A stretch of 63,993 nt of DNA, filler included, from Porpidia crustulata (GCA_964255105.1; 13 parts of 13 records of this genome joined end to end with filler, not necessarily neighbours in it), one strand, 5' to 3'. Shown: positions 27,018 to 34,711, counted from the whole stretch's first letter. Notes: generated by a model not told the origin, from the letters alone. A program made the numbers and translations.

Positions 27018-29476
27018 ATGTCAACGAAACCGAAAGTCCTACCTAAACGACCGGGTCAAAGGCCACCCAGATTGGATAGCTTGAAGAACCCACAGCCACG
27101 TGCGCCTCCTCAAATCAAGAATAAGAAAACTCCAACAACATGTACAAATCCAGAATGTGTTGAAAAAGATGTGATCGAAGAAGATGGGCAGTTGGTCTGC
27201 CAGTCATGTGGTACAGTCATTCAAGAAATGCATATTGTCAGCGAGATTACCTTTGGCGAAACTGCAGGTGGTGCAGCCACAGTACAAGGAAGCCATGTGG
27301 CCGCAGACCAGGGCTATGCCAGAGCGGCTGGAGGGCAAAGACTCAAGATGTCTGGAGGTATGGACAGTAGGGAAATTACTGAGGCGAATGGTAAGTACAT
27401 CATGTACTACCTAGATGGCGGAGCGTAAGATTTACTGATTTTATGATCTCAGGTAGACGATACATCAACCAAATCTCTGCGGCCTTGAAAATCCCTCCCG
27501 GTATTCAGGATGCTGGAATGCAGATATTCAAGCTTGCTGCAGGAATTAATTTCATTCAGGGTCGTCGGACTAAAGCTGTGGCTGCTGTTTGTCTGTATAT
27601 TTCCTGCCGTCTCCAGCAGAGCGAAAACAAATTCATGCTCATTGATTTCTCTGACGTCTTGACGCTTAACGTCTTTAAACTTGGCCAGATATATACGGCG
27701 TTGCTCAAAGCACTTCATTTCACCGGGAACCGCCAGAACATCCAGCTCATCAACCCCGAGGATCTGATTCTCCGTTTCTCAAAGGACCTTGAATTTGGTG
27801 AGAGTCAAATGCGGGTCTGCACTGAGGCAGTCCGAATTGTTCAGCGCATGAATCGAGATTGGATGACGACCGGACGTAGACCTGCTGGTATTTGCGGTGG
27901 TGCTCTCATCTTGGCTGCTCGAATGAACAATTTTCGGCGCACGCCTCGGGAGGTCTCTTTTGTCGTCAAGGTAGCAGAGGCTACCATATTAAAGCGGCTG
28001 GACGAATTCAAGGTCACCGAGAGTAGCGGCCTTACTGTGGACGAGTTTCGAACAGTTGACCTTGAAAATGCTTGTGATCCTCCTGCGTTTTATGAGCAAA
28101 AGAATGGCAAGAAGAAACGGGGTCGCAAGCGTAAAGTCGTTGACGTTAATGATGGCGAGCTTTCTGATGGAGATTCGGAGCGGGCAGCTTCAGCTCTACC
28201 ACCGAACACAGGCGGTCAGCTTCTAACGCCAGCTAACACGCAAGCATACAACGATGCTCGGAGTATGCCACCACCGCCGGTTCCCATAGACCCAGCTTTA
28301 CTTGAAATCTCGGCGCAGCGATTGTCCGAGCTAGCATCGTCTCCCGACCACAATTCTGCCACTCGATCTTTGTCATTAGCGGATGGCCAAGTTGAGCCCA
28401 CGACTAAGCGTCGGCGTGGCCGGCCCCCTGGCAGACAGAAACAGCCATCTCCACCTGCGCCCAGCGAATTCGAACAAGAAGCAGCCATTGAATCAGAGAT
28501 TCAAGAATTCCTCTCTGATCCTTCCAATATCGCCCAAGCTTCCTTACTCCATTCAACACACGATGGCACCTCAGTATCACAAAGTCCACCAGCCACTCAA
28601 GAAGCCATCAACCAAGAGGCCACCGTCCAACACGACCCCTCCTCCCAAATCCCGGCCCCAGAAGCCCCTGCAATGCCGCCACCAATTGAGCAATTATCCA
28701 CCACCCTCGCCGTCCTCAATACCATCCCTTCAACCCCGATCATCCCGGACTCCGAATTCGCCTCCGACCCCGAAGTCTCCAACTGCCTCCTCTCCCCCGC
28801 CGAAATCCTCGTCAAAGAACGTATCTGGGTCCACGAAAACCGCGACTACCTCCGCGCCCAATCCGCCAAACTCCTCAAGCAGCAACTCGCCGAGCAGAAC
28901 GGTACCACCCGCCAGATCATCCGACGCAAGCGCCGGCGCGCCCGAATGGGGGACCTACGGGGTTATGGCATAAACTCCGACGACGACGGTGAGGCCGCGG
29001 GAGCCGAAGGCGGGGGTGGCGCGGGACGGAGGGGAAGCCGCCCGATGACGCCAGCGGAGGCGACGGCTATGATGATGAAAAAGCGCGGCTATTCCCGCAA
29101 AATCAATTACAAAGCCATCGAGGAACTTTACGTTCCCAGCCCAAGTCGAAGTGCCAGCGCCAGCGCCAGCCGGCGCGACAGTCTAGCCGAGAGTCCTTTG
29201 TCCGGCACCCCCAGTGCTGCTGCCGCTGGCTCATCGGCCAAGATGGGCACGATCACGAGCCCCGACGGCACGGCCATGAGCCCCGGCGGGACTACGGTCG
29301 AGGGCGAGGCGGCGGCGGCGGCGGCGGACAAGGACGGTGCGGGAGCTGAGGACGCGGAGAGCGAGGAGGAGGATTACGTGGAGGATGAGGGGGAGACGCT
29401 GGAGGATATCGTTAAGGAGCTGCGGGAAGAGGAGGAAGAGGAGGAGGAGGAGTATGAGGGGGAGGAGTATGATTGA
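27018..29476 (+). CDS. BRF1: TFIIIB subunit Brf1
   Basis: Zn ribbon CTNPEC...VCQSCG, cyclin folds FIQGRRT and WMTTGRRPAGICG, C-terminal KERIWVHENRDYL and SRKINY motifs. One intron, about 27391-27452. Confidence 0.96.
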
Positions 29477-29494
29477 TTGATTGATTGATTGATT
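29471..29494. repeat. (GATT)6 microsatellite overlapping the BRF1 stop codon
   Basis: Read directly from the sequence. Confidence 0.9.
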
Positions 29495-29981
29495 TGACTT
29501 TAGGAAATGGGAAATGTGATGTTGTGGCGGAAAATTTGGCGGTGTTGCATTTTGGGGCGTTGGTTGGCAGGGTGCACGTGGAAGAGGAATTTTGTATGTA
29601 TATTATCTTGGCTGTACGCCTGAAAGGGAAATGATGTTGTATTGCTATTAAATATGGATATCTCTAATAATTTGACGATATTGAGGTTTTAGCTGATGCA
29701 AAAATTGGTAGTACAGATGGATTCCAAGCTCAGCAGCTGTATTTCTACGTACGCTATGACATCTCAAATTACAGCACCCCATCCCGTAACAGCAGTTGCC
29801 CCGACCATCACCTTCATCAACTACACCAACGCAACGACCACCAAGCGTGCCCACTACCTCTTCTGCCTCCCCGCTCATCCCNNNNNNNNNNNNNNNNNNN
29901 NNNNNNNNNNNNNNNNNNNNNNNNNTTAATTAATTAANNNNNNNNNNNNNNNNNNNNNNNNNNNNNNNNNNNNNNNNNNNN

Positions 29982-31772
29982 GGGTTCGATGATGGGGCCT
30001 TTCCAGGAGCGCATGTCGGATTTGACGAGGTGGACGCGGTTCTGCCACGTGTGTTCGTTGTGGCGTTGCAGGAGGACGTAGGCGTTTGGGTTTTTTTCTA
30101 CAGCCCAGAGCTCGATTTCGATGCCGGTGGCTTCGCTGGCTCGGAGCGCTCTTGTGACTAGTGGTCCCCGACCGGCACCGACTACAGCTACGACAATGCG
30201 ACCATGGGAACTTGATGCTGGCTTTCCTTGCTGGACCCAGTCGCCCAGTGCTTTCGCTATCGCACGTTCGTACAAGTCGTACTTGACTGGGTCTTTCTCG
30301 AATACCTCATACGTGATACTTTCCAGGTTATCGGTTAGAGGCTGTAAAGGAGCTTGAAGATAGTCCTGGTAACCAGCACCAAAACGTTCCAGCTCAGTCC
30401 TTGGGGGCTGCTTGCGCTGAAGCCATCGTATGTAGCTCAAGTGGGGGTTAGGGTCGTCAGACTTTTTACCATTCGGCTGTCTCTGTTGAGATGCCTCAGC
30501 CGGGGTTGGCGCATCCAGGGCTGCGTTGGGACTAAGGAAGCCATCGGCCGTCGAGACACGTGACTCAGGATTATCTAGGCCAGGGATTGGGCCCACATCG
30601 CAAAGAAGGATCCATGGCGGATTACGTATGCGCATGTATTTGCTAATGAGCTCGCGGTGTTGTTTGGACAAGACCGGATAACCTGGGGAGTTTCGAACAA
30701 AAGTCTGAGCGCTCAAGGAGATGAGACGTAAGGACTCCGAATGCCAGCGAGACTGTATACTGAGAGGTGGAAGATGTCTGGGTATAGACAAAGCTGAACA
30801 GAGAGCGGTCAGCTTCTTGTTTTGGTGGTTTGTACTTTGAACGTAAGGAACGCAAAGAAGTACCTCAGCTTCTGATCGCCGACCGACATCTCATCTTGGT
30901 CTTCCGGGTCAACGGTGAGGTAAGATGAACGATGCAGATGTGGACCCTCACAGGATGGAATGAGAAGCAATGAATATAATTCCTTATTCTTACCTACAAA
31001 AAGCCTAACATTATGTTTACAGACGCTCCTAATAATATTCCATGCATCCCACGTTCCAAAAATATCAGCTTTCTTAAGCTTGACCTCCTCTTCGGCTCCA
31101 ACATAATCTTCTCTTGCAAATGGCGTCAAGCTACCCTCCACATCTTCACCATCAGCGCCGAAGTGGTCGATCATGGGTAGCCAGATCTGGATCTGAATAT
31201 AGTTGCCTATGGCGAGAGCTTGTTGTATTACGTAGGCATACTGTGTCACACCTTCCCCATGTAACTTCCCATGGTGTAGCTTCGGACCTGGGATGATGAC
31301 ATTTCCGATGCCACAAAAAGCAGCATAAGCTATCTCTAGTTCCAATACCTGGCGCGAAATGTCGTAGACCAAGGGATCTGGAGAACACAAATCGATCCAA
31401 GGACTAGCGACTGCGAGCAATTGGGAGATGACCTCTCCAGGGGTCAAGGGTGTGTCCACTGGTGACAATTCTGATACACTGGGCGGTGAAACATTGGGAT
31501 GAGATCTCAGCGCCTCCAAATGGTTCGATAGTTGTGCTATCACTCGACTTTGAAAATGGGGTGTTGTGATGGGAGTCGTCAGCATGTCATACTGAGATAT
31601 GTCAGCTCTGGATACACAAGGGATCGTCCAGACATACGGCGCAATCTTGCGCCTGCCGCAGAGTTTGATCTGTGACAGGCAGTGGTCGTTTACTCTCATG
31701 CTGGCCAATGTAGAAGGTGGGAATGTAATCATCTCCAGTTGGCGATGATGGAGACTCCATACTAGATTCCAT
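29982..31772 (-). CDS. HSL7: Type II protein arginine methyltransferase PRMT5/Hsl7/Skb1 (3' truncated)
   Basis: TIM-barrel motifs SPWIDLCS and EIAYAAFCG, YQDYLQAPLQPLTDNLESITYEVFEKDPVKY, SAM-binding VVGAGRGPLV, AVEKNPNA. Introns about 31592-31637 and 30794-30993. Confidence 0.95.
30794..30993 (-). promoter_or_regulatory. Candidate structured cis-regulatory RNA in PRMT5 intron 2
   Basis: 200-nt intron, versus about 50-70 nt for most introns here. It contains an 8-nt anti-5'-splice-site sequence, an 8-nt anti-branch-site sequence, several competing helices and an internal GAG|GTACTT donor. Confidence 0.45.
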
Positions 31773-32256
31773 GCTATGACAAAGAATGCGCGGTAGGAGA
31801 ATAATGAGAGCTCAAGTTCAATCCTCGAACGACGGTTCTTGGGGTTTTATGTGTACTCGGAGTCATGTAACGGGTACCGAAGTACTTCGTATTGCTTCAC
31901 CGTAATTTGAGCGGTAAGGATGAAGAGGAAGAGAGAAATCGACGAGTGACATGATACACATTGAAAACCATTGGTGGATCAGTAGGCAATCCATGCGTCT
32001 ACCTCATGTTGGTGTTGCTTGAGATGCTCTGCATTACTCAGGAATGTCCTTCGTCGTTGCATAAAATAAGATATGCCTAGATGGATACTGCACTATTATT
32101 ATGCATGCATATGGTGCTCCCTAATCCGTATATAGATTAGTCTCACAATTTGACGGATGAACCGTGTATAATTTTCAATTAGGAAAGAACGTCAGTAGTG
32201 GTACTTGAGTGAATAATATAATACATACCGCCACTTTAACACATAAATAGTCCGCC

Positions 32257-34711
<2,455 letters not shown>

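Follow-up and report, generated by a model that had tools for sequence, protein, structure and literature searches.

Why is one intron of the PRMT5/Hsl7 gene so much longer than its neighbours, and is there anything within it to account for the length? The question is raised by a 63,993-nucleotide stretch of DNA from Porpidia crustulata (GCA_964255105.1; 13 parts of 13 records joined end to end with filler), here called the window, in which a minus-strand gene encodes the PRMT5/Hsl7 arginine methyltransferase (the Pfam PRMT5_TIM and PRMT5 domains both match) and is interrupted by an intron of 200 nucleotides (nt). A preliminary description, made from the sequence alone, proposed that this intron is an RNA splicing switch in which mutually exclusive helices occupy the donor or the branch region, perhaps in response to S-adenosylmethionine (SAM), S-adenosylhomocysteine (SAH) or methylthioadenosine (MTA), or to spliceosome capacity. 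The exceptional intron and its conserved, frame-shifting internal donor are borne out by the analysis reported here; the anti-donor, anti-branch and helix mechanism is not. We suggest instead that, in the internal donor, a weak proximal 5' splice site has been conserved whose use yields an unproductive isoform of PRMT5, perhaps with a link to spliceosome capacity, a reading that the sequence comparisons make quite possible, if still short of probable.

The intron runs from a GTAAGA donor at 30993 to a CAG acceptor ending at 30794, with a branch word CTGAC at 30812-30808, and splice and frame computation confirms that its removal joins LFV to ALSIP, between V and A and in phase 1, restoring the frame as first described. 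It has the features of a U2-type intron: GT...AG borders, a CTRAY sequence near the 3' end, a conserved protein frame that is restored on splicing, and a position kept in orthologues. On full retention translation ends at the TGA at 30811-30809, the same stop that had been placed at 30809. The features on which the argument turns are as follows, all on the minus strand, with a slash marking the border between exon and intron.

30794..30993, minus strand: phase-1 intron, long in several classes, its position kept in most fungal orthologues (sequence and orthologue comparison)
30986..30996, minus strand: productive (distal) donor, TAG/GTAAGAAT (orthologue comparison)
30858..30868, minus strand: internal donor-like element CTGAG/GTACTT, with the G of GT at 30863 (orthologue comparison)
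30866-30858, minus strand: word GAGGTACTT of the internal donor (located by sequence check)
30794..30863, minus strand: 70-nt 3' sub-intron expected from the internal donor (an equivalent of 52-70 nt in 16/16 site-bearing rows)
30864..30993, minus strand: 130 nt that use of the internal donor would add to the exon, with a stop at 30645-30643 (frame computation)
30806..30813, minus strand: branch region GCTGACCG, containing the retention-frame stop TGA at 30811-30809 (sequence)

The comparison set consists of 80 PRMT5 loci obtained by a profile search of metagenome contigs (given below as L numbers), in which the intron was placed by tblastn with exons 2 and 3 of the window. A phase-1 intron between V and AL is present in 60 of the 80, no intron is found in 12, and the exon-2 match is missing in eight; L016-L021, L027, L033, L068 and L069 have no intron at this position. 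There have thus been several losses of the intron, each of which removes any element inside it too. The median length is 114.5 nt over 50 distinct introns, 27 of which are at least 100 nt, with 186-221 nt in lecanoromycete and 155-193 nt in Helotiales rows. For the other introns of the same orthologous PRMT5 genes (n=45) the median is 56 nt, and among the five of at least 100 nt one is this very intron, mis-assigned in L024. The statement that most introns here measure 50-70 nt was checked on these orthologous introns and, in the window, on two nearby introns of 46 nt (PRMT5 intron 1) and 50 nt (PRP43/DHX15); a pattern-based intron census across the whole window was uninformative, being no different from shuffles. 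A repeat or mobile-element origin of the extra length was considered and set aside, no second copy being present in the window beyond chance words. The productive donor occurs in an extended form (GTAAGAAT or GTAAGAAA) common to Lecanoromycetes, Helotiales, Eurotiomycetes-like and Dothideomycetes-like loci, and in Lecanoromycetes about 40 nt downstream of it are also conserved; the blastn match of the intron to L001, L002 and L009 is limited to the first 33 nt.

Within these longer introns an internal element recurs at a similar distance from the acceptor. With the search pattern xRG/GTR, in which position -3 is left unconstrained, 16 of the 27 distinct introns that reach 100 nt show an internal site, 52-70 nt ahead of the acceptor, and the rows that bear it fall in three clades of the tree: Lecanoromycetes (the window, L001, L052 and L053, all with the same CTGAG/GTACTT), Helotiales (L003, L004, L007, L010, L015, L039 and L040, with sites of the GAAG/GTACTA type), and a clade grouping with Dothideomycetes (L041, L042, L043, L045 and L047). 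Outside Lecanoromycetes the core of the site is RAG/GUAC(U). The sequence CTGAGGTACTT is unchanged among the window, L001 and L052, despite an exon-3 protein in L052 that is only 69% identical, and in every clade no stretch of the intron is better preserved than the block surrounding the site, the splice signals excepted. Among 7-mers AGGTACT is the one shared most widely, being present in eight of 25 representative introns, the maximum for any 7-mer in 200 shuffles being six; the background of AGGTAC is 0.27 per kb on the sense strand of all loci (367,819 bases).

Independent support comes from database proteins translated straight through the 3' portion of the intron, which carry a compatible signature. 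From 14 further open reading frames (ORFs) with at least 26 residues of intron translation we excluded one full-length protein that had been included by mistake, and 12 of the remaining 13 contain EVL, KVL or RY 19-26 residues upstream of the junction, which are translations of (G/A)AG-GTA-CTN or AGG-TAC and so mark AGGTAC at the peptide level; in the thirteenth, S-G-T stands at 23 residues and is compatible as well. As peptides do not fix nucleotides, this signature is consistent with AGGTAC and is not proof of it. Taken with the orthologue comparison, the internal donor is a genuinely conserved element, kept well beyond what chance would give, and a candidate splice site.

Like a donor, the site has AG on its exon side followed by GUA, and the sub-intron that it would mark off is of a size ideal for fungi. 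All 16 rows have a purine at -3; such a base fits the exon side of a donor and is unusual for an acceptor, acceptors preferring a pyrimidine. It is weak, with a G at +5 in only two of the 16 rows as against all 60 real donors listed, and at its place L004 (GTAAGA) and L047 (GTATGT) have full-consensus donors. The preliminary description had given the internal donor at 30863 a 70-nt intron, 130 added nt and a frameshift, all of which hold in the window, and the resulting premature stop lies at 30645-30643. Across the set, use of the internal site gives a stop or frameshift in 16/16 extensions in silico. Readings of the motif as a U12-type donor, a branch-site mimic or an antisense acceptor were dropped, inspection by eye giving no consistent matches.

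We propose that a normal U2-type intron, at an ancient and conserved PRMT5 position, would have been kept at some three to four times the length of its neighbours for the sake of a second, deliberately weak 5' splice-site-like element, G/GUACU, which is spaced from the branch site and acceptor (52-70 nt) as is optimal for a fungal intron. Productive mRNA would come from the strong distal donor UAG/GUAAGAAU. Use of the proximal site would leave intron sequence of 82-149 nt (in the window, 130 nt) in the mRNA and would end the reading frame ahead of the SAM-binding domain, giving an unproductive isoform of the type seen in alternative splicing coupled to nonsense-mediated decay (AS-NMD), and PRMT5 output would be set by competition between the strong distal and the weak proximal donor. 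We infer that the internal donor is used in vivo and that its product is degraded. When PRMT5 is lost, it is mainly weak 5' splice sites that suffer. Output could then respond to the recognition of weak donors, that is, to the supply of small nuclear ribonucleoproteins (snRNPs), which PRMT5 itself promotes by methylating Sm proteins for snRNP assembly (PMC6315869). A feedback of this kind on PRMT5 itself may therefore exist. In its strongest form the proposal would place PRMT5 of leotiomyceta under an ancient homeostatic loop, in which high Sm methylation and snRNP supply would cause the weak site to be recognised more often and give the unproductive transcript, and low supply would leave only the strong donor in use and raise output; this we regard as an unlikely extension, one still worth stating. 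The Neurospora prmt5 mRNA has been reported as a direct exosome target (PMC4549623), which is compatible with an unproductive isoform and not specific to it.

Several observations weigh against the idea of an unproductive isoform. The site is absent from the long introns of L006, L014, L022, L024, L036, L048, L050 and L057, which belong to classes where it otherwise occurs, and from the shorter Eurotiomycetes-like introns, and since it is missing from several long introns and the intron itself has been lost in some lineages, the element is dispensable. It lacks the +5 G of every real donor and may be too weak for splicing, and a weak motif could serve something other than splicing. The shuffle controls ignore relatedness, and the seven Helotiales loci, being mutually alignable, amount to about one lineage. 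The stop or frameshift that follows from its use is not independent support, because any random 100-nt piece of intron would give one. The literature that was searched contains no report of fungal PRMT5 alternative splicing. PRMT5 names are absent from the supplements of alternative-splicing surveys in Sclerotinia (PMC7749757, 8 files) and Botrytis (PMC11857874, 1 file), in which the gene may yet be listed under a gene identifier, as identifiers were not searched. The five database ORFs with at least 96% identity to loci of the set are without exception simple genomic read-throughs, none being an alternatively spliced transcript. The one sequencing run compared (X1) gave a single near-identical, unspliced contig spanning 30020-31900, which is probably the source of this very DNA and carries no information on expression. 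Inspection by eye shows a GTTRGT word in L014 and L022, at 72 nt from the acceptor.

The fold switch first proposed for this intron depends on a set of words, all of which, with their coordinates and frames, are correct on re-checking of the minus strand.

30918..30925, minus strand: anti-donor word TCTTACCT, complementary to AGGTAAGA at the real donor; not conserved (sequence, shuffles, orthologues)
30878..30885, minus strand: anti-branch word CGGTCGGC; not conserved (sequence, shuffles, orthologues)
30920-30915, minus strand: word CCTCAC (located by sequence check)
30946..30951, minus strand: word GTGAGG (30951-30946, located by sequence check), also a second donor-like word, with a similarly placed YTGTGAR word in relatives
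30929-30922, minus strand: word TTCATCTT (located by sequence check)
30897-30890, minus strand: word AAGATGAG (located by sequence check)
30895-30886, minus strand: word GATGAGATGT (located by sequence check)
30941-30931, minus strand: word ACATCTGCATC (located by sequence check)
Within the intron, minus strand: words GGGTC and GACCC (located by sequence check)

The 8-nt complementarity of the anti-donor word is locally rare, with one of 200 shuffles reaching 8 nt (P 0.005), and through TACCTCA the same word is also complementary to TGAGGTA at the internal site; the pairing of 30878-30885 with the branch region at 30806-30813 is marginal (P 0.095 by length and 0.025 by energy). Neither word is present in L001, the closest relative (exon-3 protein 89% identical), where the aligned positions differ. 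Among the 26 other orthologous introns of at least 100 nt, a Watson-Crick complement of the donor region falls below P 0.05 in L047 only (0.045), donor duplex energy does so only in L015 and L040 (one lineage, 0.02) and L028 (0.04), and branch-region duplex energy does so in none. The intron with its flanks folds at -54.8 kcal/mol against -49.5 ± 4.4 in shuffles (z -1.22, 20 of 200 shuffles being as stable), and the consensus structure of five lecanoromycete introns reaches only -2.5 kcal/mol. The local fold around the internal site is unremarkable (z +0.37 in the window, +0.90 in L001 and -0.01 in L052), and the accessibility of the internal donor is not below that of shuffled contexts (mean z -0.29 over 14 orthologues). 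The Rfam search that the preliminary description had called for found no family across 28000-34000 of the window at E values of 10 or below and none in 20 orthologous loci at the gathering score, and hence no riboswitch and no snoRNA in the intron. The proposed helices thus lack a signal of selection and a riboswitch-like mechanism is not supported; attractive local complementarities in one sequence fail when orthologues are compared.

Helotiales orthologues have a structure of their own, a conserved bipartite hairpin at L003:2399-2456, L007:392-449, L015:1641-1698 and L010:2391-2448, with an outer helix of AGAGC paired to GCUCU, an inner helix of CCUUCGGAG paired to CUCYGAAGG, and a loop whose sequence varies freely. 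Its 3' strand ends at the internal donor. The consensus energy is -13.3 kcal/mol and the fold z ranges from -2.1 to -4.3 in four of six loci. A covariance model built from it recovers only the six loci used to train it, with no match in the window or in 24 other sources, the hairpin being absent from the window's clade. A donor-like YTGTGAR word (GTGAG or GTGAA; 30946-30953 in the window) lies 43-67 nt into the intron in members of several clades, L001, L003, L007, L015 and L005, and in the 100-nt Eurotiales-like intron of L005 it is 44 nt from the acceptor.

Under the switch first proposed, structure would govern this intron, with anti-donor and anti-branch helices choosing the donor, possibly as set by SAM, SAH or MTA. 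The rarity of the anti-donor word, the marginal anti-branch duplex by energy and a two-donor geometry like that reported for fungal TPP (thiamine pyrophosphate) riboswitch introns (PMC3597705) speak for such a switch. They are outweighed by the loss of both pairings even in L001, by a fold and an accessibility no different from shuffles, by the weak consensus structure, and by the failure of the Helotiales hairpin model to find anything in the window, and SAM, SAH or MTA sensing is left without evidence because no Rfam aptamer of any family, the TPP and SAM classes included, was matched in the window region or in the 20 loci; we give the switch hardly any credence. Nor do we find it credible that the intron hosts a small RNA such as a box C/D or H/ACA snoRNA or another processed RNA, the alternative raised in the preliminary description. 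The conserved length of the intron and its two CUGA words (30868-30865 and 30812-30809) would suit one, but neither TGATGA nor ATGATG occurs in the intron, confirming the lack of a canonical C box already remarked upon; there is no terminal stem, as the CTGA flanks are not complementary, nor an Rfam match in the intron or the 20 loci, and the conserved blocks are short while the remainder of the intron diverges freely. That this is simply an ordinary long intron, whose shared words reflect chance or ancestry without function, would accord with the tail of long members among fungal introns and with the closeness of the window and L001, in which even intron 1 aligns; the same word nonetheless recurs, equally spaced, in clades that share only 53-69% protein identity with the window, the rest of the intron is unalignable between clades, and the neighbouring introns of the same genes are about 56 nt, so that such an explanation is very improbable.

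Two further explanations concern the element itself. G/GUACU could be an unspliced binding site that acts in place, tuning splicing efficiency or transcript fate without a second isoform, for example by docking U1 snRNP to help or delay removal of the long intron, by acting as a decoy for the branch machinery, or as a nuclear-retention or decay signal on unspliced transcripts. That the non-consensus form is held (+4 C and +5 U in most rows, with the scarcity of +5 G noted above), as would suit recognition by a factor other than a productive spliceosome, that the motif lies in an internal loop of the conserved Helotiales hairpin, and that the Neurospora transcript is a reported exosome target are all in its favour. 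The tight 52-70-nt spacing to the acceptor is needed by a functional intron and not by a mere binding site, full-consensus donors stand at the same place in L004 and L047, and no result points to a candidate binding protein; we consider in-place action unlikely, if far from negligible. The other explanation is removal in two steps through a zero-length exon, either by recursive splicing or as two abutting introns, with RAG as the acceptor of a 5' sub-intron and the donor regenerated. It draws on the AG directly before GT in 15 of 16 rows, on the resemblance of L004 to two canonical introns (CTGAC about 33 nt upstream and a GTAAGA donor), and on the Helotiales hairpin, which lies between a branch-like GCUGAG and the AG and could shorten the effective distance. 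Against this, the -3 purine (AAG or GAG) is invariant, the purine-rich 45 nt ahead of the AG in the window contain no CTRAY word, and the branch-like word in Helotiales is not consistently CTRAY; because of the -3 purine and the want of a consistent upstream branch word, recursive two-step splicing is disfavoured and we rate it as decidedly improbable. The sequence also gives no fit to a [D1,2] stwintron (G/GT...AG/T).

Comparison with systems that are better understood helps to place the weak proximal splice site that we favour. SmB/B' is regulated by unproductive splicing. SR proteins have been described as subject to unproductive alternative splicing (AS-NMD) across kingdoms (PMC4379411). 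As in such AS-NMD cases, the alternative site in PRMT5 is conserved between distant species, belongs to a gene of the splicing pathway, is predicted to give a premature stop on use, and is a non-coding element that is itself kept. Unlike them, it is a 5' site inside one intron of an enzyme upstream of snRNP assembly, in filamentous and lichen fungi; it is weaker than any real donor examined, and it is known here from sequence alone. Its conserved site and predicted stop agree with the class of unproductive splice sites that are conserved in splicing-related genes. In Neurospora NMT1 (NCU01977) a TPP riboswitch intron is reported to control alternative 5' splice site choice (PMC3597705). The PRMT5 intron shares with fungal TPP riboswitch introns its length and its competing 5' splice sites, one productive and, as we propose, one not, but has no aptamer, conserved long-range pairing or significant structure in the window's clade. 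MAT2A shows SAM-responsive splicing control through METTL16, with conserved hairpins bound by the methyltransferase. Like PRMT5 as proposed here, it is a methylation-pathway gene with an output set by the splicing of a particular intron; no comparable methyltransferase-bound conserved hairpins were found in the PRMT5 intron. Recursive splicing and the stwintrons of Pezizomycotina also combine a long intervening sequence with an internal AG/GT junction and a normal-sized 3' sub-intron, but in PRMT5 the internal site has a -3 purine in all rows and no consistent upstream branch site. A [D1,2] stwintron, in which an internal intron is described as interrupting the external donor between G1 and U2 (G/GU...AG/U), was rejected: the internal AG is followed by GTACTT and not by a T that would complete such a donor, and the outer donor GTAAGA is intact, with no splice signal interrupted.

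The gene itself is only partly present. The window encodes the N-terminal two thirds of PRMT5/Hsl7, with a complete 5' end and an exon 3 that is interrupted by an assembly gap.

29982..31772, minus strand: PRMT5/Hsl7 gene (Pfam domains, exon and frame computation, closest relatives)
31772-31638, minus strand: PRMT5 exon 1 (exon and frame computation)
31637-31592, minus strand: PRMT5 intron 1, 46 nt (exon and frame computation)
31591-30994, minus strand: PRMT5 exon 2 (exon and frame computation)
30993-30794, minus strand: PRMT5 intron 2, 200 nt, phase 1 (exon and frame computation)
30793 down to 29982, minus strand: PRMT5 exon 3, ending at the assembly gap

At 29882-29981 a TTAATTAATTAA linker (29937-29926) lies between two runs of N, breaking exon 3 within the methyltransferase domain; this is a scaffold join, and the 3' part of PRMT5 is consequently not in the window. 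The closest protein relatives are PRMT5 of lichen-forming fungi (about 70-76% identity), and a quick maximum-likelihood tree places the window's protein inside the Lecanoromycetes clade. Two database relatives (P0024 and P0096) have deposited or predicted proteins that read through the intron, with GKN... between LFV and ALS, an annotation artefact that arises because the intron there is free of stops and a multiple of three in length. PRMT5 is transcribed divergently from PRP43/DHX15, a DEAH-box spliceosome-disassembly helicase at 32257-34640 on the plus strand (777 aa, with a single 50-nt intron at 32610-32659), the two start codons being about 480 nt apart; the same adjacency occurs in 40 of the fetched loci, from several classes, and in none of the Helotiales loci.

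To our knowledge, deeply conserved non-coding elements in fungal introns are few. A practical use of recognising this one is that gene predictors read through or mis-join the intron in some database entries. As the element consists of one motif and two donors, and is present in genetically tractable Helotiales, the proposed role is simple to test. Through conserved control at the level of splicing inside PRMT5, spliceosome supply would be coupled to the enzyme that sustains it, and, if the proposal is true, the intron would act as an internal meter of spliceosome capacity that three fungal classes have kept.

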